A stretch of DNA of 64,000 nucleotides from a virus (Duplodnaviria > Caudoviricetes): positions 25,816-89,815 of the IMG/VR virus record IMGVR_UViG_3300037067_016086; one strand, given 5' to 3'. Positions within the stretch are counted from its first letter, which is position 1, and every line of letters starts with the position of its first letter. A program made the translations under genes and the position numbers. This document shows positions 25,680 through 55,639 of this stretch, piece after piece. A model generated the notes under the pieces. It was not told the DNA's origin. It made no database searches and saw only the letters and a list, made by a program, of their open reading frames with translations.

Positions 25680-25816
25680 CAGCCTGCACACCTGGCCACC
25701 GTGGCGCCCACGAGGAATGCGATCAGGAAGATCGCGGACCAGCGGTACGCCAGCTCGCGGCCGCGCTCCTCCTCGGCCTCGTACGGCAACTGAAGTGGCT
25801 CACGATCACGCAGCAT
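25676..25816 (-). CDS. small membrane protein
   Basis: 46 aa, helix WSAIFLIAFLVGATVA; stop lies in the TTGACA box. Confidence 0.55.
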   Translation of the reverse strand: MLRDREPLQLPYEAEEERGRELAYRWSAIFLIAFLVGATVARCAGC

Positions 25817-27167: not shown

Positions 27168-27180
27168 GTGGACCTCCTTG

Positions 27181-27253
27181 TAGCGGGGGCGTGATTCGAA
27201 CACGCGACCTTCAGGTTATGAGCCTGACAAGCTACCATCTGCTCTACCCCGCC
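27181..27253 (-). tRNA. tRNA-Met(CAT), initiator-like, no encoded CCA
   Basis: cloverleaf GGCGGGG..TCAGG-CTCATAA-CCTGA..TTCGAAT..CCCCGCT-A, followed by CAA. Confidence 0.95.
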
Positions 27254-27259
27254 TTGTTT

Positions 27260-27333
27260 TCGGAACGGTTGGATTTGAACCAACGGCCCCAGCGCCCCAA
27301 ACGCCGTGCTCTACCAGACTGAGCCACGTCCCG
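27260..27333 (-). tRNA. tRNA-Pro(TGG), no encoded CCA
   Basis: cloverleaf CGGGACG..CGGCG-TTTGGGG-CGCTG..TTCAAAT..CGTTCCG-A, followed by AAA. Confidence 0.95.
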
Positions 27334-27343
27334 ATTCGCAAAA

Positions 27344-29974: not shown

Positions 29975-30003
29975 ACTTTACCGCGATCCCGTGCGTTTGT
30001 CAA
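29975..30003 (-). promoter_or_regulatory. sigma70-type promoter
   Basis: TTGACA-N17-TAAAGT. Confidence 0.8.
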
Positions 30004-30004
30004 C

Positions 30005-30020
30005 GCGAACACGTGTTCGC
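30005..30020. promoter_or_regulatory. 16-bp palindrome copy (perfect) abutting the -35 box
   Basis: GCGAACACGTGTTCGC-G-TTGACA. Confidence 0.85.
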
Positions 30021-30021
30021 C

Positions 30022-30492
30022 CTACGCTGCGTCCCATCTCTCCCAGCATGCGCGGCACAGCTGGTTCCGCTCACCGCCGACCATGTGCAGGATATGCGCC
30101 ACCAGCCGTGATTTTCCCGGAGGAGTGAGGCTGGTCACAACGCGCGCGCTGAGCACGCACTCCACCTGCTCCCCACAGCTCGGGCACTTCCAACCGATCG
30201 CGACCCCGCCGTTCGGGAGGCTGCTGGTCTCGTGCTCGACGGGGCCACGCGGCTTCGTCCACCCGAACGGCCACTTCTCCGGGATCGCCTTGTCGTTCTT
30301 GGGCCTCGCGCGCAGCACGCGCAGTCGATCCCCACAGATCTGCGCCCGCGGCTGATCTGCTGGCCGCTTCGGAACGGGATTCGGCCGCGTCATCTCCCGG
30401 ATACGCAACCGTGCGCTCTCCCGCTCGTGCTCCGGCGTGGCCGGGTGATCAGCGAGTGCCCGGAGCTTCTGGAGTAGGTCCTTGCGCTCCAT
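30022..30492 (-). CDS. DUF2786-like N-terminal domain protein
   Basis: KLRALADHPATPEHERESA. Confidence 0.6.
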   Translation of the reverse strand: MERKDLLQKLRALADHPATPEHERESARLRIREMTRPNPVPKRPADQPRAQICGDRLRVLRARPKNDKAIPEKWPFGWTKPRGPVEHETSSLPNGGVAIGWKCPSCGEQVECVLSARVVTSLTPPGKSRLVAHILHMVGGERNQLCRACWERWDAA

Positions 30493-30769
30493 CGGCCGCC
30501 TCCAACTGGCGATCCACCTCGCGGCGGGCGCCGCGCAGGCTGTTCAACTCTGCCCGCAACGTGTTCAGCTCGGCATCGCGCGCCGCCTTCACCTCGGAAA
30601 GAGAGCGCTCCATGTACGCCATCGCCAGGCAGACGCGCTCCAGGACTTCGTCCCGCGCGATCTCCCCCGCCGTCGGTCCGTACGGATCTGGTGTCTTCGC
30701 CAGCTCCCTCTCGCGCTCCGCAACCATGGCGCGAACCTCGTCCATCGTGTACACCCGCGCGTCCAACAT
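30449..30769 (-). CDS. coiled-coil hypothetical protein
   Basis: ORF. Confidence 0.55.
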   Translation of the reverse strand: MLDARVYTMDEVRAMVAERERELAKTPDPYGPTAGEIARDEVLERVCLAMAYMERSLSEVKAARDAELNTLRAELNSLRGARREVDRQLEAADGAQGPTPEAPGTR

Positions 30770-30784
30770 CTACATCCTCCTGTT

Positions 30785-31504
30785 CTACTCCGCCAAGAGC
30801 GGGATCTTCAGGATCTCCGTCCTCTCGTACTTCAGCGCGTCCGCGGCCCAGAACTCCGTCTGCGCCTCCGATTCCGGCAGCCCGCTCGGGAACCACGTGT
30901 GCCGGTACTTGTGCTCGTGCCCCATCAACACGATGTCGGCGCGGCCCAGGACCACGTCGAAGAACTGCTTCGCGTCGTTGAGGCGGCAGAACCAGTCCGT
31001 GTAGAACGGGTTGTGGTGGAGGGCCACCACGCTGATCGCCCGCGCCTTCTTCATCGCGTCCAGCTTGCGCTTCAGCTTCCAGAGGTTCCAGCGTCCGATC
31101 TGCCCCTGCGCGAAGTCCACGATGCTGCCCGTCCGCATGCAGGAGTCCAGCACGATGATCTCGCCGACCGCGATGCCGTCTATCCTGAACATCCACGGCG
31201 TGTCCGCACAGAGCGCATGCCGCAGCTTCGCGAACCGCCGCTGGCACTCCCGGTCGTAGAAGTTCCCGAGCAGCCCAAAGGAATGATTACCGGGAACGAC
31301 AACGATCCGTCCTTTGAAGGGGGAAAGAAGGCGCAACGCATGCGCGTACTGGTTCTCCTTCCCATCATCGACGATGTCCCCGGTAACAACCAGGACATCA
31401 CCGTCGCCCATCATCTCTTGAACCTGACGCAGCTTCCCCTCCACCACGCGGTTGTGCTTCATGTCCCCGCGCAGGTGCAGATCCGAAATGTGCAGAATCC
31501 TCAT
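30785..31504 (-). CDS. calcineurin-like metallophosphoesterase
   Basis: HISDLH, TGDIVD, PGNH, LHH, GHEH. Confidence 0.9.
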   Translation of the reverse strand: MRILHISDLHLRGDMKHNRVVEGKLRQVQEMMGDGDVLVVTGDIVDDGKENQYAHALRLLSPFKGRIVVVPGNHSFGLLGNFYDRECQRRFAKLRHALCADTPWMFRIDGIAVGEIIVLDSCMRTGSIVDFAQGQIGRWNLWKLKRKLDAMKKARAISVVALHHNPFYTDWFCRLNDAKQFFDVVLGRADIVLMGHEHKYRHTWFPSGLPESEAQTEFWAADALKYERTEILKIPLLAE

Positions 31505-32010
31505 GGCATCCACCTCTTTCCCGTGACGACTCGGCTAATCTGTGCCCTTGAAATTCTGAACTCCTCCGCAAGATCCTTCTGCAACTCGCCACGTCCAACG
31601 CGCAGACGAATCTCCTCCACCATGGTTTCCGTCAGCTTCACCGATGCCGGGTTAGAACGGATTCTGTTCTCGCGAGCCGTCCTTCCAATGGGCATCCGCC
31701 CACGATCCCGGCAATCACGCGCGTTCTGCTTTGCATCCCCAGCGTACAGGTGGTCTGGGTTCACGCACCAGGGCCGGTCGCACCGATGCAAAACCATCGG
31801 CGCGCCAATGGCAGGCTCCGTGGGCCACGGCAAAGACTCCACCCCGCCCCACAGCAGCAGACTTGCCACGTGCGCACGGTAATTGTGTCCGTGCTCGCGA
31901 AATATTCCATATCCATCACTGCCCAGAGCACCGGTCCATTCCCAGCAATCATCAATCTGGCGCACCTGAACCTGGCGCATGAACCGAGTCCGCATGCCAG
32001 ACTTCCGCAT
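31501..32010 (-). CDS. HNH endonuclease with C-terminal HTH
   Basis: CWEWTG..GYG..AH...VLHRCDRPWCVNPDHL...N; HTH QKDLAEEFRISRAQIS. Confidence 0.9.
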   Translation of the reverse strand: MRKSGMRTRFMRQVQVRQIDDCWEWTGALGSDGYGIFREHGHNYRAHVASLLLWGGVESLPWPTEPAIGAPMVLHRCDRPWCVNPDHLYAGDAKQNARDCRDRGRMPIGRTARENRIRSNPASVKLTETMVEEIRLRVGRGELQKDLAEEFRISRAQISRVVTGKRWMP

Positions 32011-32012
32011 GG

Positions 32013-32261
32013 CTACCTCCCCACCCACTGGTCACGCGGGACCTCCGCGCCACCCTTGTCCACAGCCACACGGTTTTCCGCGCTGCTGCTCACCCGATGC
32101 CCGTTCTCGCACTGGCGCCCGTGCCCCTTGCGCAGATCCTCCAGATTGTGCGGCCCCGGACACCGGCAGGAACCAACGAACTTCCCGCCGCACACGGGGC
32201 ACGGCTCACCGTACGGCCACTCCTTCTTCGCCCCCTCCAACTCCTCGAACAACTTCCGCAT
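32013..32261 (-). CDS. small Cys-rich hypothetical protein
   Basis: GGAGG RBS; CPVCG, CRC. Confidence 0.65.
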   Translation of the reverse strand: MRKLFEELEGAKKEWPYGEPCPVCGGKFVGSCRCPGPHNLEDLRKGHGRQCENGHRVSSSAENRVAVDKGGAEVPRDQWVGR

Positions 32262-32270
32262 GGTATCCTC

Positions 32271-32353
32271 CTACAGAACCAGCTCCTGCTGGCCCATCTC
32301 GCGCAGGACTTCCCGGATGTCCCGTCCATCGATCCCGTCTCCAACGGTCACCC
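32271..32353 (-). pseudogene. displaced original C-terminus of the MT-A70 methyltransferase
   Basis: VTVGDGIDGRDIREVLREMGQQELVL* vs active TTIGLGVTGNDIRVDIENLTDQKSLHV*. Confidence 0.8.
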
Positions 32354-32953
32354 CTACCAGACGGTCCGCATCCAATCCACGACACGCTGCAATTCGTCAG
32401 GATTCGAATCTCTTTTCAAATTGTTACAACGCCAACAGACAAGGGCGATGTTTCCCACTACATATCCTTTTTCCAAATGTATCCTATCCAAGCTCGGAGA
32501 ATCATTTCGCTTCCTGCCGTCATGTTTATATGCAACATCAAATTCACGACCACAACACGCGCAATTCCTCTGTGACATCAGCCAGTCTGTCAAATATGCA
32601 ATCGTGAACACGTCTGCATCGAACTGAATTCCGTGCTCCGAACTCCGGATTTGCATGCCACCCCTCATCACAGTGGCGCGAGCATGGAAAGGATCTCTAT
32701 CCTGCTTGATGCGTGCTTGTTCTCGTCTCTTGGGAAGTTCCAATTCTCGACGCTCTGCCCACAAGGCCCTACGTCTTTCCTTGTATGGTTCCCCCTTCTT
32801 CGCCTTCCACTCCCGATGATATTTTCGCCTGCAAACGCGACAAACCCCACTTATTCCATTTCTACAGTCGGGGCTAGGAGTAAAAAAATCCAACGTCTCC
32901 GGTTTCGCTTCCCCGCACTTGCTACACCTTCGCATTCCCTGTTCGCCCGGCAT
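32354..32953 (-). CDS. HNH-like homing endonuclease
   Basis: CSKC..C zinc finger; CACC, SPSLDRI...GYVVGNIALVCWRCNNLK; AT-rich. Confidence 0.85.
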   Translation of the reverse strand: MPGEQGMRRCSKCGEAKPETLDFFTPSPDCRNGISGVCRVCRRKYHREWKAKKGEPYKERRRALWAERRELELPKRREQARIKQDRDPFHARATVMRGGMQIRSSEHGIQFDADVFTIAYLTDWLMSQRNCACCGREFDVAYKHDGRKRNDSPSLDRIHLEKGYVVGNIALVCWRCNNLKRDSNPDELQRVVDWMRTVW

Positions 32954-32989
32954 GCCTAACATCATGGTCCTGTAAATCCGATCGGTCAA

Positions 32990-33532
32990 CTAGACATGCA
33001 GGGATTTCTGATCGGTCAAATTCTCAATATCCACACGAATATCATTCCCGGTAACGCCCAATCCTATGGTCGTCCATCCCGGACGCGTGGCGCGCGCGAA
33101 CAGCTCCAGGCGCCGCGTGCCAGCCATCAGATCCTCGATCTCGCGGTACACCTCGTCCGGCTTCTGCGAGTGCTCGCGCACTTTGGCCTGCACGATCTGG
33201 TGCACACCCGCGCTCGCTCGCTTCGGGCTGCCGCGCACTCCCAGCAGGACCAGCTCCGCGTTGGCCCGCGTGTAGCTGCCCATGCCCCAGTGCAGCTTGC
33301 CGTTGGTCGTGCGCTTTTCCCAAACGAACGCGACCGTTTTGTACTTGAACCCGTACGCCGCCATGACGCGCAGCGCCACGTCGATCTGCGGACACGTGGC
33401 CCACAGGAAGAGCGCGCAGTCCGGAGCGGCCAGCTTGCCCACCGGCAATGCCGCGATGTCGTCCGCGGTCATGGTCTTGTAGTGGAACCCTGCTCCGCGC
33501 TCTCCAGCCTGCTGCTTGTCCGAATAGGCCAT
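32990..33532 (-). CDS. MT-A70-family adenine methyltransferase core lacking the DPPW motif in frame
   Basis: HYKTM..DIAALPV, LFLWAT, W.K, G.YTR.N.E..L.G..G, HSQKP, LELFAR. Confidence 0.9.
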   Translation of the reverse strand: MAYSDKQQAGERGAGFHYKTMTADDIAALPVGKLAAPDCALFLWATCPQIDVALRVMAAYGFKYKTVAFVWEKRTTNGKLHWGMGSYTRANAELVLLGVRGSPKRASAGVHQIVQAKVREHSQKPDEVYREIEDLMAGTRRLELFARATRPGWTTIGLGVTGNDIRVDIENLTDQKSLHV

Positions 33533-33576
33533 CAGGACCACGGTGGGTCGGCGCAAATCACGTCGTATCTACCCAC
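33532..33576 (-). CDS. 14-codon replacement MTase N-terminus carrying DPPW
   Basis: GAGGA RBS, GTG GGT AGA TAC GAC GTG ATT TGC GCC GAC CCA CCG TGG TCC TGA; TGATG overlap with the core ORF. Confidence 0.75.
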   Translation of the reverse strand: MGRYDVICADPPWS

Positions 33577-34243
33577 CGTGGTACCATCCTCGCTTTGTCG
33601 CATATCCCTGAACCAACCTTTCGAAATCCTCTTCACCCAGGGAACTTTTCGCCCAGTTGTACCAATTGCAAACCACATGAACATTCGAACGGACGTATCC
33701 GCGCGTAGAGTCGATCCGATCAAGGCTTGCAGTAAAAGGCTCCCGATACGGTTGCCCCGTATGAAGCCGACGAAGCGCAATGCCCGTCGAGTCACAACAA
33801 AAATCATTCTTTTCCATGAGGGAAAAAACAAACACTTTGTCGATGTCGAATTCCATTCCAGACTTCCTAGCACGATACCGAGATCTACGAACCATATCGG
33901 CTGCGATGCCACGCCAAGAATTCCGGTAAACATCAACACCACTCTGTTCGCATGGACGACAAACACTCCCCAGATAATTCTCGGATTTGTTTTCGATGAG
34001 CTTGTGCCGCATTCGAAATTGGGATCGATCCTTGATCGCCCCACACACTAAGCACTTTTTCAGTCTATCAACTCCGAGTTTCTCCCGCATGGCACGCAGC
34101 CCACCCATGGACTGCTGCATCACGCCCAGCATCCCTATCAGGTTCCTCTTTCGGAAGATGCTCACCGGCGGAATCAGCCCAAACTCATCGATAAGTTTGC
34201 GCAATTCCAATTCCACCGACTCCGATGTCCACTTCTTTTTCAT
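33569..34243 (-). CDS. HNH-like homing endonuclease
   Basis: CLVC..CRPC; SLDRIDSTRGYVRSNVHVVCNWYNWAK; AT-rich. Confidence 0.85.
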   Translation of the reverse strand: MKKKWTSESVELELRKLIDEFGLIPPVSIFRKRNLIGMLGVMQQSMGGLRAMREKLGVDRLKKCLVCGAIKDRSQFRMRHKLIENKSENYLGSVCRPCEQSGVDVYRNSWRGIAADMVRRSRYRARKSGMEFDIDKVFVFSLMEKNDFCCDSTGIALRRLHTGQPYREPFTASLDRIDSTRGYVRSNVHVVCNWYNWAKSSLGEEDFERLVQGYATKRGWYHGG

Positions 34244-34250
34244 GATCCCA

Positions 34251-34319
34251 TCATACCAGAATTCCATTTGTCGTCAAGGTCCACGGAGGGTCCATCGCGA
34301 TGACGTCGAATCCGCTCAT
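34251..34319 (-). pseudogene. displaced original N-terminus of the MT-A70 methyltransferase
   Basis: ATGA-coupled MSGFDVIAMDPPW then TLTTNGILV* read through the cassette promoter. Confidence 0.9.
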
Positions 34320-34561
34320 CGATCCACCCCCTGGACCACCAGGGTCACCTGGAGCCGGTAGTCGTTGTCGGGATGCTTCTCGTAGAAGTCCATCTCGCGG
34401 ATGCTGTTGGAGCTGGCACCGTGCGGGCCCGCCTCGTCCTGCGAAACCATGATGTCGGAGAGCCGAACCAGACGCTGATCATAGAGCGCCTTGGAGGCGT
34501 CCAGAATCTGCTTGACCAGAGCGTCCCGCGTAGCACGCTGCGCCACCGACATCTTCGCCAT
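34316..34561 (-). CDS. hypothetical protein
   Basis: ORF MAKMSVAQ. Confidence 0.6.
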   Translation of the reverse strand: MAKMSVAQRATRDALVKQILDASKALYDQRLVRLSDIMVSQDEAGPHGASSNSIREMDFYEKHPDNDYRLQVTLVVQGVDR

Positions 34562-34588
34562 CTGATAGCCGCCTCTGCCTGCCATGCC

Positions 34589-36439
34589 TCACTCCTCGTC
34601 TAGCCCGTCTTGAACAACACCAGCTACCAAGTCCAGGTTCGCTTTATCGCTCCACGCTGGAGCATTCTCCGGCAGCAGAGCGCCACCGGAAAGGCGCTCG
34701 ATGAGCGTCAGGATGCGGCGCGCCACCGCCTCTGCCTGATCCTTCCGCTCCTCCGCCGTTTCTGGTTCATCCCCTACAATCCCATGAAACTGCGCCGACT
34801 TCAACCCGAGCACGTCCATCATGACCTGATCGTACCCCGTGTTCGACACGCAGTAGTAGCTCTGCACCTCGGTCATATCATCGGGAGCGCCCACGCGCGC
34901 GATGCGCGTTTCGCACTGTCCATGCACGGCCGGGGCCCAGTCCAGCTCCGCCATCACCGAGCAGGTTGCCCGTGTCTGAAGTCCGTCGAGTCCAGCCGCG
35001 GTGCGCAGAGAGAGATCGGCGACCAGGGCATCTCCGTCGATGAACCGATCCAGCGCGGCGTCCTTCTGCTTCTCCGTCTCGCGACCCGTGAGAACCGAGA
35101 TCTTGAAGTCCGCGAGCTTGTCGATGAGGATGTCGTGCACGTCGTGATGCCAGGCGAACACCAGCGGTCTCTCCCCGGCCGCGATCAGTGACGCCACGAA
35201 AGCAGCCACAGCGGGCGCCTTGCACACCCCCGCAGCATGACGCGATCTCCGGTCGATGTCCCGCGCCACCCTCCCGCGGTTGAACCACTCCAAACCCTTG
35301 TACCCGCGAGCCTGCTCTACCGCCGCCTCCATCATCTTGGCGTGGAGCCCCTCGTCGTGCTCCAAGTCCTGCACGTGTCGGACCACGCGCGGCATCTGCG
35401 GCCGCACCTCGGTCCAACGCCGCCGCAGCAGCAGGCCCTCCCGCCGCAGGTAGTCGCCGAGCACGTCCGGTTGCGCTACCACCTTGTTCCCGTACCCCGT
35501 ACACCACTCCCGAGAGAAGGCCTCCGCGGAGCCCAAGCAGTTGAAGTCGAGGGCGTTCGTCACCGACCAGATCTCCGTGCCGTACCCGTAGATCGGCGTC
35601 CCGGACAGACCCCACACGCTCGTCGAATCGGAGGACAGCAAGGATGCTGCCGAGTACTTGCCCGTTCCTGTGTGCCGTAGCTCCTGCACCTCGTCGAAGA
35701 TCGTCACCGGGAACCCGTGCTTCAGCAGCGCGTTCTTCCACGGCGCCAGCAGCCCGTAGTGGATGATCGCGAAGGGAGTCTTGGGGATCTCGTACGGCGT
35801 GGTCGTCCGCAGGATCGGCGCGAGGACCGCCCCGCGGCGCTTCGCGAACTTCCAGTCGGACTCCCCCTCGCGCTGCGGCTCCGTACCTGGCATGTCGAAC
35901 AGCGCGCCGATCATGCGCTGCCACTGCCGCTGCACCTGCGTCTGCACGACCACCAGCACCGGGTACTTGCCCAGCGCCGCCGCGGCAGCCAGCGCCGTCC
36001 AGGTCTTGCCCAGCCCCATGCCATCCGCAAGGATCGTGCGCTCGTTGGCGAGCAGGAAACCGACGCCCTCCTCCTGGTAGGGGAACAGCTTGCCCACGAA
36101 CTCTGAGGGAGGCCGCACCGCCGAGATGTCGGCGTTCGTCGATCGCCGCACCGCGTGCTCGATCGCGACCGCCCGGGCTGTTGCCAGAGCGTCGTCGCAC
36201 TGCACGTCCAGCGGGTAGCGCAGCAGAAACCAGTTCAGGTCCTCGGCCACGCGCCGCGTGTTGTGGAACGCCAGGTACTTGCGGTTGACGTTGGCCCCCG
36301 GGAACAGGCGCCGGGCCGCCTCCATCATCGCGGGCTCCCCGGCGATGCAGAACCGGCGGTTGTCCTCGTCGTAGACCAGGGTGCCGTACCGGTGTCCGGC
36401 CAGCGAAGGTACTACCAGGTGGTCCGGGGTATAGCTCAC
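34589..36439 (-). CDS. SNF2-family helicase
   Basis: ILADGMGLGKT, IFDEVQ, LSGTP, LVFAWH, GLDGLQ, Q...R..R. Confidence 0.92.
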   Translation of the reverse strand: MSYTPDHLVVPSLAGHRYGTLVYDEDNRRFCIAGEPAMMEAARRLFPGANVNRKYLAFHNTRRVAEDLNWFLLRYPLDVQCDDALATARAVAIEHAVRRSTNADISAVRPPSEFVGKLFPYQEEGVGFLLANERTILADGMGLGKTWTALAAAAALGKYPVLVVVQTQVQRQWQRMIGALFDMPGTEPQREGESDWKFAKRRGAVLAPILRTTTPYEIPKTPFAIIHYGLLAPWKNALLKHGFPVTIFDEVQELRHTGTGKYSAASLLSSDSTSVWGLSGTPIYGYGTEIWSVTNALDFNCLGSAEAFSREWCTGYGNKVVAQPDVLGDYLRREGLLLRRRWTEVRPQMPRVVRHVQDLEHDEGLHAKMMEAAVEQARGYKGLEWFNRGRVARDIDRRSRHAAGVCKAPAVAAFVASLIAAGERPLVFAWHHDVHDILIDKLADFKISVLTGRETEKQKDAALDRFIDGDALVADLSLRTAAGLDGLQTRATCSVMAELDWAPAVHGQCETRIARVGAPDDMTEVQSYYCVSNTGYDQVMMDVLGLKSAQFHGIVGDEPETAEERKDQAEAVARRILTLIERLSGGALLPENAPAWSDKANLDLVAGVVQDGLDEE

Positions 36440-36451
36440 GTCACGATCCCC
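36440..36451 (-). repeat. 12-bp direct repeat, right of TnpB cassette
   Basis: GGGGATCGTGAC, identical to 37884-37895. Confidence 0.85.
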
Positions 36452-36600
36452 GTTCTCCAAAACTTACCCACCTATCCACGACTGGCATCGATGGAGTTTG
36501 GTTCCTGCCCAATCGGGAGTTTCGTCCGCCTCTTTCGAGACGAGCCAGCGCTCCCAAGGCGACAGGCTGTCGCGGCCGAACTGGCCGCCCAATTCTCTAG
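36450..36600 (-). ncRNA. probable omegaRNA (reRNA) scaffold overlapping the tnpB 3' end
   Basis: position typical for TnpB guides; hairpins GGCCAGTTCGGCC and GACAGCCTGTC; boundaries approximate. Confidence 0.55.
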
Positions 36601-37659
36601 AACCTTCGCTGCGTTCTCGTCCCGGTCATGGACCACCCCGCAAGAAGGGCAGTCCCACTCTCTGACGGACAGCGGCAGATCCTCCATCACGTACCCGCAA
36701 TCGCTACATTCCTTCGAGGATGGTTTGAACCGCGGGTAGACCACGACATCGGAACCACACATCAGCGCCTTGTACGTGAGCTGCCTCCGAAACTCAAAGA
36801 ATCCCATGTCTGCAATTGCCCGAGATAGACGCTGGTTCTTCGCCATCCCGCGCACATTCAGATCCTCGATGACGATCACATCGAACCGCTGCACTAGATT
36901 CGTCGTCAACTTGTGCAAGGCGTCCGTGCGAATGTCCGCAATCTTCTCGTGCACTCGCGCCAACCTCACCTTCGCCTTGGCCCGGTTCTTCGATCCATTC
37001 CGCTTCCTGCTCACCGCCTTGTTCAGCATGCGCAACCGCTCCAACGCCGCTCGCAACGGCCTCGGTCCATCGATGTGCTCACCTGTAGACAGAGTAGCCA
37101 GATGTGTAATGCCGAGATCCACCCCGACCGTGCCGTGGTTCTTGTGCACGATCGGAACGTCCTCGACCTCCACCAACACACTCACGTACCACCGTTGAGC
37201 ACGTCGCGATACCGTCGCCGAAAGAAGACGACCCTCAAACCGTAACTCCTCCCGCATCCGGACCCACCCGATGCGGGGAAGGCGAATCCTCCTGCCCTCT
37301 ATTCGGAACAATCCAGGAGTATTGTCAGACGCCAAAAACGAGTCATGGATACCTTTTTTCTTGAATCGTGGGTATCGAGTCCGCTTCTTGAAAAATGCTC
37401 CGAACGCATCCCCCAAATTCTGGATTGCACACTGCGGAACCGTCTTGCTAACCTCACACAGCCACGGGAACTGTTCCCGCTTGATAGCATTCAATTTCCG
37501 ACGCAACATGCTTTCATTCGGTTTCTCGCCCGCCACATACAACTGCTTCCAATTTTCCAATGCCCAGTTATAGGCGAACCGAGCACATCCCGCTGCCTTT
37601 GAGAATTCCATCTTCTGCCGATTCGTAGGGTCCAGCGCGATTTTATGAGCGCGAATCAC
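36472..37659 (-). CDS. tnpB: TnpB RNA-guided endonuclease
   Basis: AHKIALDP..GCARFAYN, VGVDLG, IEDLNV, PSSK.CS.CG..CP.CG, DRDENAA (RuvC D-E-D intact). Confidence 0.95.
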   Translation of the reverse strand: MIRAHKIALDPTNRQKMEFSKAAGCARFAYNWALENWKQLYVAGEKPNESMLRRKLNAIKREQFPWLCEVSKTVPQCAIQNLGDAFGAFFKKRTRYPRFKKKGIHDSFLASDNTPGLFRIEGRRIRLPRIGWVRMREELRFEGRLLSATVSRRAQRWYVSVLVEVEDVPIVHKNHGTVGVDLGITHLATLSTGEHIDGPRPLRAALERLRMLNKAVSRKRNGSKNRAKAKVRLARVHEKIADIRTDALHKLTTNLVQRFDVIVIEDLNVRGMAKNQRLSRAIADMGFFEFRRQLTYKALMCGSDVVVYPRFKPSSKECSDCGYVMEDLPLSVREWDCPSCGVVHDRDENAAKVLENWAASSAATACRLGSAGSSRKRRTKLPIGQEPNSIDASRG

Positions 37660-37820
37660 GAAACGCCCGCCTCCCGCATGACCAGATCCACCGCATCCCG
37701 CAGCACCTGCGACATGGACGCGCCTCGTCGTTCGGACTCCCCCCGCAACCACGCCATCTGCCGCTCCGTCAGGATGAACCGCGTCGGGACCTTGGGTTGC
37801 TTTTTCTTATTGTCCTTCAT
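37656..37820 (-). CDS. ribbon-helix-helix (CopG-like) regulator
   Basis: TRFILT...L...SERRGASMSQVLRDAVD; GTGA-coupled to tnpB. Confidence 0.7.
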   Translation of the reverse strand: MKDNKKKQPKVPTRFILTERQMAWLRGESERRGASMSQVLRDAVDLVMREAGVS

Positions 37821-37827
37821 CGTGCCT

Positions 37828-37856
37828 ACTGTATGCCAATTCTTGGCAAATTTCAA
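37828..37856 (-). promoter_or_regulatory. cassette promoter with internal inverted repeat (leaderless geometry)
   Basis: TTGAAA-N17-TACAGT-N7-ATG; TGCCAA-GAA-TTGGCA in the spacer. Confidence 0.7.
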
Positions 37857-37879
37857 CACCAAAATACTCAATCGAAAAA

Positions 37880-38254
37880 TTAAGTCACGATCCCCCAGTT
37901 GGTCGCCAGCGATACCACCCGCACCGGCTTTCCGTGGGCCCCGGCGGGCGTGTGGATGAGGTTGCGCTCCAGGACCAGTACCACGGCGGACACCTTGGGC
38001 GAGGCGGCGTAGCGGGCCACCTGGGCCTCCACGCGACCGGTGTGCTGCTTCCCGCGCTTCACCTCGATCGCCACACCGCCGTCGCACAGGAAGTCCACCC
38101 GGCACCGCGGACGGAGCTTGACCTCGTGCTCGTGCTTGATGCCCGCGCGATCGAGAGCCTCTCCGATGTCCCGGTGGATGTGTTGCTCGGACACCGTGGC
38201 GTGCAGCCGCAGGTTGCCGAGAGCGGCCACGATCCTGTCCAGAAGTTCCTGCAC
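37880..38254 (-). CDS. PD-(D/E)XK nuclease-fold protein
   Basis: SE..I...I..AL..., RVDFL...AIEVK, Q..RY. Confidence 0.7.
   Translation of the reverse strand: MQELLDRIVAALGNLRLHATVSEQHIHRDIGEALDRAGIKHEHEVKLRPRCRVDFLCDGGVAIEVKRGKQHTGRVEAQVARYAASPKVSAVVLVLERNLIHTPAGAHGKPVRVVSLATNWGIVT
37884..37895 (-). repeat. 12-bp direct repeat, left of TnpB cassette
   Basis: GGGGATCGTGAC. Confidence 0.85.
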
Positions 38255-45996: not shown

Positions 45997-46005
45997 TCTC
46001 CCCTG

Positions 46006-46079
46006 TGTGCCCGACTGGACTCGAACCAATGACCTCAACCTTGTCACGGTTGCGCTCTAACCAACTGAGCTACGGGCAC
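46006..46079 (-). tRNA. tRNA-Val(GAC), no encoded CCA
   Basis: cloverleaf GTGCCCG..CAACC-GTGACAA-GGTTG..TTCGAGT..CGGGCAC-A, followed by CAG. Confidence 0.95.
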
Positions 46080-52346: not shown

Positions 52347-52457
52347 TTACTCCGCCTTCAAATTGAGGATCGGCCGGATCTCCTCGACCACCTCGACCGT
52401 CGGCCCGATGGCCGTCCGGATCGCGTTCGCGTCCTTGTAGGCCGCGGGTCCGGACTC
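52347..52457 (-). pseudogene. displaced original C-terminus of RtcB
   Basis: ESGPAAYKDANAIRTAIGPTVEVVEEIRPILNLKAE* vs active EAPSAYKNADDIRAAIKPTVEVIEEIKPILNCKAI*. Confidence 0.95.
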
Positions 52458-52461
52458 GTTG

Positions 52462-52490
52462 TTGACATGATCCTTGTAAGCATCTACAGT
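52462..52490 (+). promoter_or_regulatory. cassette promoter for the double-HNH gene
   Basis: TTGACA-N17-TACAGT. Confidence 0.75.
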
Positions 52491-52520
52491 GTTCATGCCA
52501 AATGCAAAAAGGACATCATC

Positions 52521-53210
52521 ATGATCTGTGGTAAGTGCAAAATGGACAAGAACACAAATGATTTCCACCAGGGCCAACTTCACGGCGGGTATTGCAAAGA
52601 CTGCATGCGCATCTACGGTCAGCAATACTACCGCAACAACAAGAACCACCACTTGCAGATCACGAACCAAATTCGCCGAGAACGAAGCGCCCGGCGGCGT
52701 GAATTTGTCCAGAAGATGAAGACCATCCCATGCGCCGACTGCGGACACGTTTTCCACTCCTTCGTCATGGATCTTGACCATCGCAACCCTGCGTCCAAAT
52801 TGGCGAGCATTCAATATCTGCTGTATTCCGCATCGGAAAAGATATTCCACGAAGAGCTGCTGAAATGCGATGTTGTTTGCGTCAACTGCCACAGAGATCG
52901 GGAACAGAAACGGTACTTGATCAAGCATCCAATCCCGACCCACTTGTCCCCTCGGCAAACATGGAACAAGGCAATAAAAGATCTCGCCAAGTCCAATCCA
53001 TGCACCGATTGTGGAGGTACATTCCACTCGTGGCAGATGGATCTGGATCATGTTCGGGGTGACAAAGTTGGCCGCGTTGGAAGCCTCTCCCACAAAGTGT
53101 CCACCGATGTTTTGGAGCGAGAGATCGAAAAATGCGAACCTGTCTGCGCAAACTGTCACAGAGTTCGCACCTTTACACGCAATCCTCCCCGGAAACATCT
53201 TACCTCCTAG
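52521..53210 (+). CDS. endonuclease with two tandem HNH domains
   Basis: C.DCG..FH...MDLDH...KC..VC.NCHR twice; AAGGA RBS. Confidence 0.85.
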   Translation: MICGKCKMDKNTNDFHQGQLHGGYCKDCMRIYGQQYYRNNKNHHLQITNQIRRERSARRREFVQKMKTIPCADCGHVFHSFVMDLDHRNPASKLASIQYLLYSASEKIFHEELLKCDVVCVNCHRDREQKRYLIKHPIPTHLSPRQTWNKAIKDLAKSNPCTDCGGTFHSWQMDLDHVRGDKVGRVGSLSHKVSTDVLEREIEKCEPVCANCHRVRTFTRNPPRKHLTS

Positions 53211-54517
53211 ATCGCCTTGCAATTGAGAATCGGCTTAATTTCTTCGATAACTTCCACCGTTGGTTTGATGGCAGCCCTAATATCGTCTGCATTTTTGTAA
53301 GCGGAAGGCGCCTCGTCCAGCGGGATGCAGCTCGTGTAGATCCCTTCCATGCTGGCCCGCGCCGCCACCGGGTCCAGCTCCCTCTTGGCCTGAGACCGGC
53401 TCATGAGGCGGCCCGCCCCGTGCGGCGCCGACTCGTTCCAGTCCTTGTTCCCAAGGCCGCGGCAGATCCAGCTGCCGTCCCGCATGTTGAACGGGATGAT
53501 CAGCCGGTCTCCGAGCGCCGCGCGCACCGCCCCCTTGCGGATGACCAGGTCCCTCGGGTCGATGTAGTTGTGGACCGTCTCGATCAGATCCTGGCTGCCG
53601 ACGTCCAGAACCCCGAGCACCTCGGCCAGGATGGATCGGCGGTTCTGAGCCGCGTAGATCTGCGCGAAGACCATGTCCTCCACGTAGGCGAACAGGTCCT
53701 CGCCGCGCAGCGACTCCAGACCGCTGGGCACCGCCACCAGGGCCCGCTGCGTCTCCTTGTACCGCTTGATGCGCTTGTCGATCTCGTGGTTCGGCGACGA
53801 CCTCCGGATCACCTCGATCTCGGACTGGTACTCGCCGGTCTTGAAATCCAGCAGCTGCTTGGCGGCCAGTCCCTGGTGGTACTTGCAGATCTTCTCGCCC
53901 AGCTGCCGCGACCCGCTGTGGATCAGCACCCAGGCCGTCCCGGGTTCGGCGCCGAGGGCCACCTCGATGAAGTGGTTGCCGCCCCCCAACGATCCGATCG
54001 ATCGCTGCGCGCGCCCGTACTTCATCCCCACCCGCTTGCAGAGGTCCTTGAAGACACCCTGCGAGGCGCCCCAGTCCAGCGCGCGGAACCCTCCGCCCGC
54101 GAACCGGTCGTTCAGCTTGCGGCGTACCACGGTCATCAGCGCGTGCGTCCCGTCGTAGAAGGGATCGTCGTCCAGCAGCTCGTGGCAGTCGTCGGTCCGC
54201 ACCTCGTGCGCGAACGGAACCCGGTCTCGGATCTCGCGATCGAGACGCTCCAGGCTGATGCCAGCGCGCCAGGGAACCCGCGCCGCCAGCACGCCGCAGC
54301 CAATGTCGACGCCCACTATTCCAGGAACTACGGCATCCCCGAGTGGCATTGTAAACCCTATCGGAGCGCCAGCCCCGGCATGGACGTCCGGCATCATCAC
54401 GATGCGCCCAGTGAAAGCCGGGGAATTCACGATCTGCGTCAGCTGCGCCATCGTGGCACTGTCGACCGTTTCAGCAGTCACGGTCACTGTCGTGTATTTC
54501 CCTTGAATATCGAACAT
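53207..54517 (-). CDS. rtcB: RtcB RNA 3'-phosphate/5'-OH ligase with both termini replaced
   Basis: MPDVH, VGVDIGCG, GSLGGGNHFIE, IHSGSR, HNY, HGAGR.MSR, DEAP.AYK. Confidence 0.95.
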   Translation of the reverse strand: MFDIQGKYTTVTVTAETVDSATMAQLTQIVNSPAFTGRIVMMPDVHAGAGAPIGFTMPLGDAVVPGIVGVDIGCGVLAARVPWRAGISLERLDREIRDRVPFAHEVRTDDCHELLDDDPFYDGTHALMTVVRRKLNDRFAGGGFRALDWGASQGVFKDLCKRVGMKYGRAQRSIGSLGGGNHFIEVALGAEPGTAWVLIHSGSRQLGEKICKYHQGLAAKQLLDFKTGEYQSEIEVIRRSSPNHEIDKRIKRYKETQRALVAVPSGLESLRGEDLFAYVEDMVFAQIYAAQNRRSILAEVLGVLDVGSQDLIETVHNYIDPRDLVIRKGAVRAALGDRLIIPFNMRDGSWICRGLGNKDWNESAPHGAGRLMSRSQAKRELDPVAARASMEGIYTSCIPLDEAPSAYKNADDIRAAIKPTVEVIEEIKPILNCKAI

Positions 54518-54529
54518 CGCCACCCCTCC

Positions 54530-55006
54530 TTACCATCCTCCAAAATGCTCAACGCGGTGACAACAAGAGCAGACCAGATCGCACTTCTCTGCCTCCACCA
54601 CGATGGCCTTCCACGCACGGTTCACGAGCTGTGGAATGTTCAGCGCGAAAACCTTCACGGCAGGATCTCGATGATGGAAGTCGAACGCTGCACCGTTCTT
54701 CCCATCGTATTTCATGCCACACAGCACGCAGAAACCTCCCAGGAGAAGGATCAATTTGACCTTCCGACTTCGGCCATACTCCAACTTGTAGCCAATCCGA
54801 ACCTCCCGATTTCGATGGTTCCACTCGCGCTTGTACTGCGTTGGGTTCTCGTACTTTCTGTTGTTGTGCCCAGAAACGTACCGCTTCTGCCTCCCGTACG
54901 GGTCCATCGACTTGATGAGTTCCCCGCATCCACAGGCACATGCGATCGTGGGAGCCGCTTCGAAAAGTCGCTCATTGCGTCGGTCCTTGCACTCTTTCCT
55001 CGTCAT
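54530..55006 (-). CDS. HNH homing endonuclease
   Basis: CACGCG; C..CG...FDFHHRDP..K...EAEKCDLVCSCCHR.EH; own TTGAGA-N16-TATACT promoter and GGAGG RBS. Confidence 0.85.
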   Translation of the reverse strand: MTRKECKDRRNERLFEAAPTIACACGCGELIKSMDPYGRQKRYVSGHNNRKYENPTQYKREWNHRNREVRIGYKLEYGRSRKVKLILLLGGFCVLCGMKYDGKNGAAFDFHHRDPAVKVFALNIPQLVNRAWKAIVVEAEKCDLVCSCCHRVEHFGGW

Positions 55007-55076
55007 GGGTACCTCCAGATCGGAGTATACCACATCCGTTGTCTATCTCAAAAAAAATGGACGATATTGGTTGTTC

Positions 55077-55277
55077 GATGTTCGGGATGATCGCCTCGCC
55101 CAGCGGCATCGTGAACCCGATCACCGATCCCGCGCCCGCGTGCGTGTCCGGCATGATGGCCACCGGCCCCGTGAAGGCCGGGTGGTTGACCATGCCCGTG
55201 ATCTGCGCGATGCAGCTGGCCTCAACCTGGTCCGCGTAGACCGTCGCCGTCGTGTACTTGCCCTCGATCGTAAACAT
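55077..55277 (-). pseudogene. displaced original N-terminus of RtcB (67 codons; frame runs on to 54972)
   Basis: MFTIEGKYTT...MPDTHAGAGSVIGFTMPLGEAIIPNI, 41/67 identical to the active start. Confidence 0.95.
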
Positions 55278-55597
55278 CAGGCACCTCCGAAATCGTTCCA
55301 GTCGCCGCGCTCCAGCGCGAAGTGATCCACCGCGATGTGCACGTAGTTTTTCCCCGGCGGGCTGTTCTCCTCGCTCGCCCGGAACTCGAAGCGATCCGTC
55401 CCGTCCAGGATGACCTCGTAGGCGTGCCGGTCGACGCGCTCCACCCCTAACTCGCGCGCCAGACGTTCGAACTCGTCCGCTATGAAGCTCGCGTGCTCCC
55501 ACGAGGCCCCGTAGATCAGGATCGGCAACTGCTCCGCGTTGTCCCGCATGGACAGCACATGCTCCAGCATCGCTCGCGTCTTTCCGGTCCCGCGCAT
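55277..55597 (-). CDS. small P-loop-like protein
   Basis: RGTGKT at the N-terminus; GGAGG RBS. Confidence 0.55.
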   Translation of the reverse strand: MRGTGKTRAMLEHVLSMRDNAEQLPILIYGASWEHASFIADEFERLARELGVERVDRHAYEVILDGTDRFEFRASEENSPPGKNYVHIAVDHFALERGDWNDFGGA

Positions 55598-55639
55598 CTA
55601 CACCTCCTCGGCCGCGCATCGCACACGGTATCCTCGGGA

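Follow-up and report, generated by a model that had tools for sequence, protein, structure and literature searches.

How can a methyltransferase be active when its catalytic motif and its fold are encoded in different reading frames? The question is raised by an MT-A70 gene in a 64,000-nucleotide (nt) stretch of viral DNA (Duplodnaviria; Caudoviricetes). The whole stretch, hereafter the window, covers positions 25,816 to 89,815 of IMG/VR record IMGVR_UViG_3300037067_016086, an 89.8-kb viral contig with an estimated completeness of about 49%; a blastn search of phage GenBank records returned no close relative. All locus coordinates follow window numbering, and the methyltransferase locus lies on the minus strand, where every element listed in the original prediction, made from the sequence alone, is present. 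That prediction described a methyltransferase split at its catalytic DPPW motif by an HNH endonuclease cassette. Going beyond it, sequence comparisons indicate that the split belongs to a mobile N-terminal module that is independent of the endonuclease and includes a conserved hairpin.

The locus was compared with L004, an endonuclease-free relative encoding the intact methyltransferase P0002, and with two lineages, L002 and L011, in which the gene is also split. Its features are the following.

34319..34278, minus strand: stranded native 5' end of the MT-A70 gene (MSGFDVIAMDPPWT), which aligns to the start of P0002 on L004
34277..33527, minus strand: cassette 1, a 751-nt insertion relative to L004 (blastn gap and shift in GC content)
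34250..34277, minus strand: promoter-like box TTGACG-16-TATGAT, TG-extended (consensus scan, 10/12 matches)
34267..33569, minus strand: EndoVII/HNH-like endonuclease gene HEG1 (PHROG matches)
33603..33535, minus strand: open reading frame (ORF) for a replacement N-terminal peptide of 23 residues (aa), MRQSEDGTTVGRYDVICADPPWS, with homologous ORFs in L002 and L011
33582..33537, minus strand: RNA hairpin (dG -28.6 kcal/mol, z -3.95, 0/200 shuffles fold as well)
33537..33530, minus strand: 8-nt coding gap TCCTGATG (alignment against intact alleles)
33532..32990, minus strand: MT-A70 core ORF of 180 aa without DPPW (PF05063, E=4.7e-25)

The core ORF is clearly assigned to its family. It scores 88.9 bits against the Pfam MT-A70 profile (PF05063; cut-off 23.9), over profile positions 20-170 of 172, and matches the DNA methyltransferase family phrog_359 at 5.4e-66. 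Because the profile match begins only at position 20, the strand bearing DPPW is missing from the core, in agreement with the predicted 180-aa core devoid of the motif. The intact relative P0002 (191 aa, 89% identical by BLASTP) starts with MIQFDVIAMDPPWTYSDKQQ and, used as the query, matched MTA1 (7F4R) and METTL3 (5IL0) as the closest solved structures. A DPPW-type motif stands near the N-terminus in 112 of the 120 best homologues, and the closest relatives read DPPW-x-Y-x-DK. At this locus the motif is not on the polypeptide that carries the fold: it is found on the 23-aa (or 14-aa) ORF and on a 22-aa remnant upstream.

Alignment to the endonuclease-free L004, which shares the gene order SNF2 helicase, 89-aa gene, methyltransferase, places the insertion of cassette 1 to the base. 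The aligned blocks are as follows.

Window 36451-34279 = L004 1869-4041, 88% identity (blastn)
Window 33526-33071 = L004 4043-4498, 91% identity (blastn)
Window 32333-31762 = L004 4514-5085, 97% identity (blastn)

The 89-aa gene upstream ends in ATGA, an overlap that starts the native methyltransferase ORF at ATG 34319. DPPW occupies 34292..34281 and is followed by the codon ACC (T); the alignment with P0002 (start MIQFDVIAMDPPWT-YSDK) stops at 34279, which corresponds to L004 4041. The predicted split is thus real, but the cut falls after DPPW plus one codon (T) rather than directly after the tryptophan. Beyond ACC the native frame enters eight unrelated codons, LTTNGILV, and stops at 34251, giving a 22-aa ORF (34319..34251). 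Cassette 1 lies between the codon after DPPW and the Tyr codon at which the native gene resumes, has a GC content of about 50% against about 65% in the flanks, and contains the promoter-like box, the EndoVII/HNH-like endonuclease gene and the replacement N-terminal module with its gap. The interruption by an HNH-type cassette, as first proposed, agrees with the PHROG matches of its endonuclease. Only 33526..33071 of the present methyltransferase gene is native.

The replacement module carries a second copy of the motif, GRYDVICADPPWS, followed by TCC (33537..33535) and TGA (33534..33532). In its peptide a unique extension is joined to a recoded homologous stretch that bears DPPW and shares about 67% nucleotide identity with the native copy; the final codons of HEG1 overlap the module out of frame. 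The likely product, as read from the sequence, is the 23-aa peptide MRQSEDGTTVGRYDVICADPPWS from ATG 33603, because the homologous modules of L002 and L011 begin at a further-upstream ATG and L011 has no GTG at the corresponding place. A replacement start had been predicted and is present; the GTG then proposed (33576, overlapping the endonuclease stop and giving 14 aa) is a possible alternative start, less likely than ATG 33603.

The gap consists of the Ser codon, the TGA stop and two further bases, and it places the core in the -1 frame. Alignment against the intact alleles bears out the predicted 8-nt excess. When the 8 nt (TCCTGATG) are deleted in silico, an in-frame DPPW-A-YSDK results, with the DPPW-x-Y-x-DK spacing of intact relatives. 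The insert ends exactly before the Tyr codon at which the native gene resumes, and the stop of the N-peptide overlaps the core ATG (33532..33530) in a TGATG at 33534..33530, as had been noted.

The same arrangement recurs elsewhere. Homologous cores without DPPW, in the same -1 frame, are P0005 (74-78% identical) and P0007 (63-64% identical). In L002 the module reads ATG..MDSVTQSEDGTTVGRYDVICADPPWS-TGA and then CGGCT-TAT, with an N-peptide ORF of 26 aa; in L011 (same as L003) a good Shine-Dalgarno (SD) sequence precedes ATG..METQQKEDTATAGRFGVIVVDPPWS-TGA and AAACC-TAT, with an ORF of 25 aa. Each of these two N-peptide ORFs is equipped with an SD and an ATG of its own. The window, L002 and L011 have in common the junction consensus CCG TGG TCC TGA NNN CYT AT, which is 8 nt longer than in intact genes. 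The endonuclease gene is absent from the locus in L002 and L011, and the upstream gene of roughly 90 aa is kept in both. Because the N-terminal module (extension, DPPW stretch, TGA and gap) is found in these two lineages without endonuclease, it is portable, and by its sequence it appears to move between genomes with or without the endonuclease. The window and L002 modules share 54 identical bases ending at the TGA, although 22-26% of residues differ between their cores.

Two of the lineages also have intact alleles, that of the window (P0002) and that of L002 (L015/P0121, MTGKHDIIACDPPWSYDDKQ, with a core 98% identical to that of L002). The segment swapped between L002 and L015 ends exactly at the Tyr codon, as in the window lineage. 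In the L011 lineage all three cluster members are split (3/3), and no close intact allele was found. Pattern scans for more split junctions in viral, metagenome and genome contig collections added only L011 as a truly extra case; the matches in L006-L010 were chance hits in unrelated high-GC genes.

In another phage lineage, L019, a related cassette (1677-2400) occupies the same DPPW site. Its native start reads MNAFDIIAADPHWA, with the stranded motif decayed to DPHW, and the cassette then contains a TTGACT promoter-like box and an endonuclease gene whose nuclease domain is 39% identical to that of HEG1. After GGAGG, the recoded N-terminus (MQAFDVICMDPPWQYTDR...) begins at a TTG and is in frame. 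The L019 core equals P0004 exactly over the stretch from the TVAFVWEK motif to the end of P0004. Presence/absence polymorphism with a recoded flanking target is seen twice, between the window and L004 and between L019 and P0004. Relative to the L019 type, the window-type module has two extras: 23 nt that form the hairpin 5' arm (AGGATGGTACCACGGTGGGTAGA) and the 8-nt gap. In-frame repair is the rule among these cassettes (L019, and cassette 2 and the rtcB cassette described below), with the methyltransferase gap as the exception.

The hairpin lies immediately 5' of the stop. Its stem of 12 bp, with 2 more past a bulge, is formed by a 5' arm at 33582..33571, which encodes TTVG in the extension, and a 3' arm at 33548..33537, which encodes DPPW plus the first Ser base; the stem ends at the Ser codon before UGA. 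A 12-bp stem is found in all three split modules, with TTVG (window) or ATAG (L011) as the extension codons. Their folding energies are -28.6, -28.9 and -35.7 kcal/mol, with z from -3.9 to -5.1 and no shuffle matching them (0/200); the in-frame N-modules of L019 and L015 fold into no such hairpin. In the stem, window and L011 differ by a single compensatory pair (U-A to C-G), by a change from A-U to G-U and by a terminal pair that is broken. Inside the 3' arm lies an alternative core start, GTG 33541..33539, and the only core start codon common to all three lineages is this GUG within CCG UGG. No SD sequence precedes the core start in the window, L002 or L011.

Synonymous (dS) and nonsynonymous (dN) divergence was compared for the peptide and the cores.

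N-peptide, window versus L011: dS 1.40, dN 0.27, dN/dS about 0.19 (23 codons)
Cores, window versus L011: dS 1.46, dN 0.32, dN/dS 0.22 (178 codons)
Cores, L002 (split) versus L015 (intact): dS 0.21, dN 0.009, dN/dS 0.04 (170 codons)

Three residues of the unique extension, Q, E and D, are conserved although the third codon position has changed in each; they lie outside the stem, in a part that intact genes lack. A family alignment of 40 sequences has 27 invariant columns, and each of the three split cores keeps all of them.

The reading that fits best, which the sequences support only tentatively and to which we give somewhat less than even weight, is that the gene is expressed as two translationally coupled chains, the 23-26-aa DPPW peptide and the core. 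Ribosomes would translate the peptide and thereby melt the hairpin that otherwise masks the core start; after termination at UGA they would start again, in the window at the AUG that overlaps the stop, or else at the GUG lying 7 nt upstream, which all three lineages have. The hairpin would enforce translational coupling. Joined to the core non-covalently, as in RNase S, the peptide would then contribute the enzyme's first beta-strand and its catalytic loop. Termination-reinitiation of this kind needs nothing unusual from the ribosome and fits both the UGAUG overlap of the window and the GUG of the three lineages. Both mini-peptides of the original prediction do carry DPPW, but the upstream 22-aa peptide is probably a stranded remnant that is not needed, because it has no counterpart in L002 or L011.

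Several points weigh against two chains. It would be unusual for the central beta-strand of a natural enzyme to come from a separately encoded piece of 23-26 aa, and in L002 and L011, where no AUG stands at the stop, the ribosome would have to restart at a GUG without an SD. Only two distinct module sequences are known, and with three sequences the covariation in the hairpin is not significant. Conservation of the DPPW stretch could, by analogy with what is described for MobA elements, be due partly to re-copying from intact alleles. The module may also have been acquired recently in the window and in L002, in which case the intact cores there say little.

The same reading gives the gap a role in immunity. 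It would sit at the site that the endonuclease recognises in intact genes, and carriers would thereby escape cutting. The gap directly follows the DPPW codons, which can hardly be recoded, and lies at the site on which the boundaries of two independent cassettes and of one module swap fall. That it is the immunity determinant is suggested by analogy with the 50-nt insert of T4 MobA. In the T4 MobA/gene 60 element, an HNH endonuclease is combined with a 50-nt translational bypass (Bonocora et al. 2011, via Manning & Atkins, bioRxiv 10.1101/2022.08.31.505936). The element was retained after loss of the endonuclease, and the insert blocks MobA nicking where synonymous differences alone do not (bioRxiv 10.1101/2022.08.31.505936).

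In both elements an HNH-type endonuclease gene overlaps an N-terminal extension that follows it in another frame; the extension joins a unique part to a recoded stretch homologous to the displaced target, the latter with 67% nucleotide identity here and 67-81% in the T4 element. In both, the coding gap opens with a stop and changes the reading frame, the end of the insert falls at the resumption codon or just ahead of it, the stranded upstream piece has a short in-frame tail, the element survives loss of the endonuclease, and independent insertions at the same site are seen in related phages. They differ in the target, an MT-A70 methyltransferase here and a topoisomerase there, and in the length of the gap, 8 nt against 50. 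Here, unlike in T4, the codons for take-off and landing do not match (UCC versus GCC, GCU, ACC), and neither a take-off stem-loop 3' of the codon nor a mini-SD is present, but there is a strong hairpin 5' of the stop. The native 5' piece is only 14 codons long here and probably useless, and the endonuclease, which is EndoVII-like, has no sequence relationship with MobA.

Other split enzymes offer partial parallels. The original prediction had invoked nrdA of Aeromonas phage Aeh1, split by mobE, which Friedrich and colleagues reportedly presented in 2007 as a genes-in-pieces ribonucleotide reductase. The comparison holds in so far as both are endonuclease-split enzymes, with a free-standing HNH endonuclease inserted at a functionally critical conserved site, but the T4 MobA/gene 60 cassette is closer. 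In Aeh1 the endonuclease ORF separates two large polypeptides, whereas here one piece has only 23-26 aa and the 8-nt stop-restart persists without the endonuclease. DNA methyltransferases whose conserved motifs are distributed over two separately translated, overlapping ORFs are known in M.AquI and M.EcoHK31I; unlike the present gene, these are C5-cytosine enzymes split between large domains, with no endonuclease cassette and no motif-bearing mini-peptide. In RNase S and split reporters, a peptide of about 20 aa with catalytic residues and a structural element restores activity non-covalently, but those splits are proteolytic or engineered, not natural and genetically encoded. By analogy with the endonuclease-split cases, a two-chain enzyme would not be without precedent. 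The Aeh1 products reassemble into an active ribonucleotide reductase with a composite active site (PMC2988022). Literature searches turned up no MT-A70 gene described as carrying a homing endonuclease, and no split MT-A70.

It is unlikely, but worth serious consideration, that the gene is simply dead, the gap-bearing module being selfish endonuclease baggage that destroys the methyltransferase, a loss that the phages tolerate, with the cores looking intact only because the module arrived recently. DPPW and core do lie in different frames with a stop between them, close intact alleles of the window and L002 mean that acquisition may be recent, and MobA-type elements may be mildly deleterious. 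Against this, the module persists without the endonuclease in two lineages, and the two module variants, diverged to a dS of about 1.4, still have the ORF and DPPW as well as the stop, a gap of equal length and the hairpin. No split core has a stop or frameshift and all invariant residues are kept; the whole L011 cluster (3 members) is split with no close intact allele found; and other cassettes (cassette 2, rtcB, L019) keep the frame.

That a single chain is restored by recoding is distinctly unlikely. The ribosome would slide forward by 8 nt from UCC, with UGA in the A site, and resume at UAU to give DPPW-S-Y; peptidyl-tRNA-Ser would re-pair on an NCY codon, helped by the hairpin re-forming behind the ribosome, in a short bypass like that of gene 60. 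The product spacing would be exactly canonical, equal to the intact junction of the L002 lineage, DPPWSYDDK. The stop comes directly after the conserved UCC, the strong hairpin ends at this take-off codon, the conserved extension could serve as a nascent-peptide signal, and the codon before UAU is GCC, GCU or ACC, matching positions 2-3 of the Ser codon. The architecture also resembles the only known endonuclease-linked bypass element, down to an insert that ends at the landing codon. However, the landing codons begin with G, G and A, never with U, though U would cost nothing, and known bypass elements always have matched codons. The gap has no SD-like element, and programmed bypass is extremely rare. 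The -1 recoding at TGG TCC TGA put forward in the original prediction is a weaker variant of this reading: CCG TGG TCC TGA contains no slippery X XXY YYZ heptamer. It is equally doubtful that the module constitutes a second, independently evolved endonuclease-linked translational bypass element whose gap would blind the endonuclease to its own allele; in that case ribosomes would stall at DPPW-Ser-UGA, be driven 8 nt onward as the 5' hairpin re-forms and resume at Tyr, yielding an intact methyltransferase.

Removal of the gap from the RNA, by endonucleolytic cuts at the hairpin base followed by ligation, is very improbable. The genome encodes RtcB (rtcB lies in the window) and an RNA ligase, and the conserved hairpin abuts the gap, but no recognisable intron, bulge-helix-bulge motif or Rfam match was found, and 8-nt mRNA splicing has no precedent in phages. 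An assembly or sequencing artefact concealing an in-frame DPPW-x-YSDK join can practically be dismissed: only the general possibility of indel errors speaks for it, and the junction recurs unchanged in three more independent assemblies that differ in sample and assembler (two made with megahit, from ENA, and a Logan assembly of SRR6484325; 100%, 99.98% and 100% identical over 4.1-5.5 kb), with the same 8-nt excess in diverged sequences from other samples. The 8-nt lesion or assembly error considered in the original prediction thus becomes unlikely, since the three assemblies and the two diverged endonuclease-free lineages keep the gap. Whatever probability is not taken up by two chains, recoding or a dead gene falls to other or unknown mechanisms.

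Further candidates were rejected. For a group I or II intron, positions 30000-38000 gave no Rfam match with E up to 1; an intein is incompatible with an endonuclease ORF out of frame with both exon copies; and TGA is not a sense codon, for the frame beyond it does not resemble a methyltransferase and the upstream 89-aa gene terminates at TGA. The scan for intrinsic terminators found no terminator-like site. The window has only tRNA-Met, tRNA-Pro(UGG) and tRNA-Val(GAC), with no tRNA-Ser and no suppressor. These tRNA genes are located at 27180-27334 and 46005-46079.

The textbook example of a homing endonuclease that travels with a translation-rescuing trick at a conserved coding site is T4 gene 60, which has long stood alone. 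The same parts list is found here with an unrelated gene, an unrelated endonuclease and a far smaller gap, and endonuclease-plus, endonuclease-minus and intact natural alleles are on hand for comparison. If two coupled chains are made, this would be a natural enzyme completed by a peptide of roughly 25 aa that bears its catalytic motif; if the ribosome hops, the junction would be a minimal, tractable bypass signal. By analogy with T4, such a gap may be a route to self-immunity for endonucleases that target catalytic-motif codons, where synonymous recoding is insufficient.

HEG1 encodes 232 aa from ATG 34267 or 224 aa from ATG 34243, the start chosen by the gene callers of other assemblies. It has the homology of a free-standing HNH/EndoVII-type nuclease, with PHROG matches to phrog_3322 (endonuclease, 4.3e-25), phrog_1035 (endonuclease VII, 2.6e-17) and phrog_3118 (HNH, 4.3e-11); no Pfam family matched at E 0.01 or better. 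The promoter-like box stands at the very start of cassette 1, and ATG 34243 comes 6 nt after its -10 box, a spacing that suggests a leaderless endonuclease mRNA. A homologue search in 5.8 billion proteins returned two distant relatives only, neither of which adjoins a split MT-A70. The only closer homologue of this endonuclease is at L016 3001-3883 (52% identity), on a low-GC phage contig, directly upstream of a different methyltransferase-like gene (FYPTP...LDPGCG). L004, which is endonuclease-free (88-97% nucleotide identity), and the cassette-bearing L013 come from the same ENA sample, ERZ27247363, and intact targets and endonuclease therefore co-circulate.

The 3' end of the methyltransferase gene has been rebuilt by a second cassette.

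33070..32354, minus strand: cassette 2, replacement C-terminus and second endonuclease gene (blastn gap against L004; insertion 33070 to about 32346)
32989..32354, minus strand: second EndoVII/HNH-like endonuclease gene (phrog_1035, 2e-29; 27% identical to HEG1)
32345..32271, minus strand: stranded native methyltransferase 3' end, ..VTVGDGIDGRDIREVLREMGQQELVL and a stop (matches the P0002 C-terminus; L004 from 4514 at 97%)

The replacement C-terminus (33070..32990) is in frame and low in GC, reads TIGLGVTGNDIRVDIENLTDQKSLHV up to the stop, and provides the last 26 codons of the core ORF. The stranded native C-terminus (..GDGIDGRDIREVLREMGQQELVL and a stop) lies downstream of the cassette 2 endonuclease stop. 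Both cassettes open with a TTGAC(G/C)...(T/C)ATGAT promoter-like pair, at 34250-34277 and at 32961-32989 (minus strand). A third nuclease gene (31501-32028, minus strand, 175 aa) lies two genes downstream of the methyltransferase; it has His-Me finger/HNH PHROG matches and a weak PF05551 match, and about half of it falls within the stretch 97% identical to L004.

The rtcB gene is bracketed likewise at 52347-55619 (minus strand). A native N-terminal remnant lies in ORF 55619..54972, followed by an HNH gene at 55033..54530; an in-frame recoded N-terminus opens the 438-aa rtcB ORF (54523..53207), and a C-terminal remnant lies in ORF 53222..52347. Near the methyltransferase, 36452-37883 is absent from L004 and contains a TnpB/IS605-OrfB gene (426-aa ORF 36472..37752). 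Window 37994-37884 aligns to L004 1770-1880, directly adjoining the block that starts at window 36451, and because the flanking blocks adjoin in L004 this stretch is an insertion upstream of the SNF2 gene.

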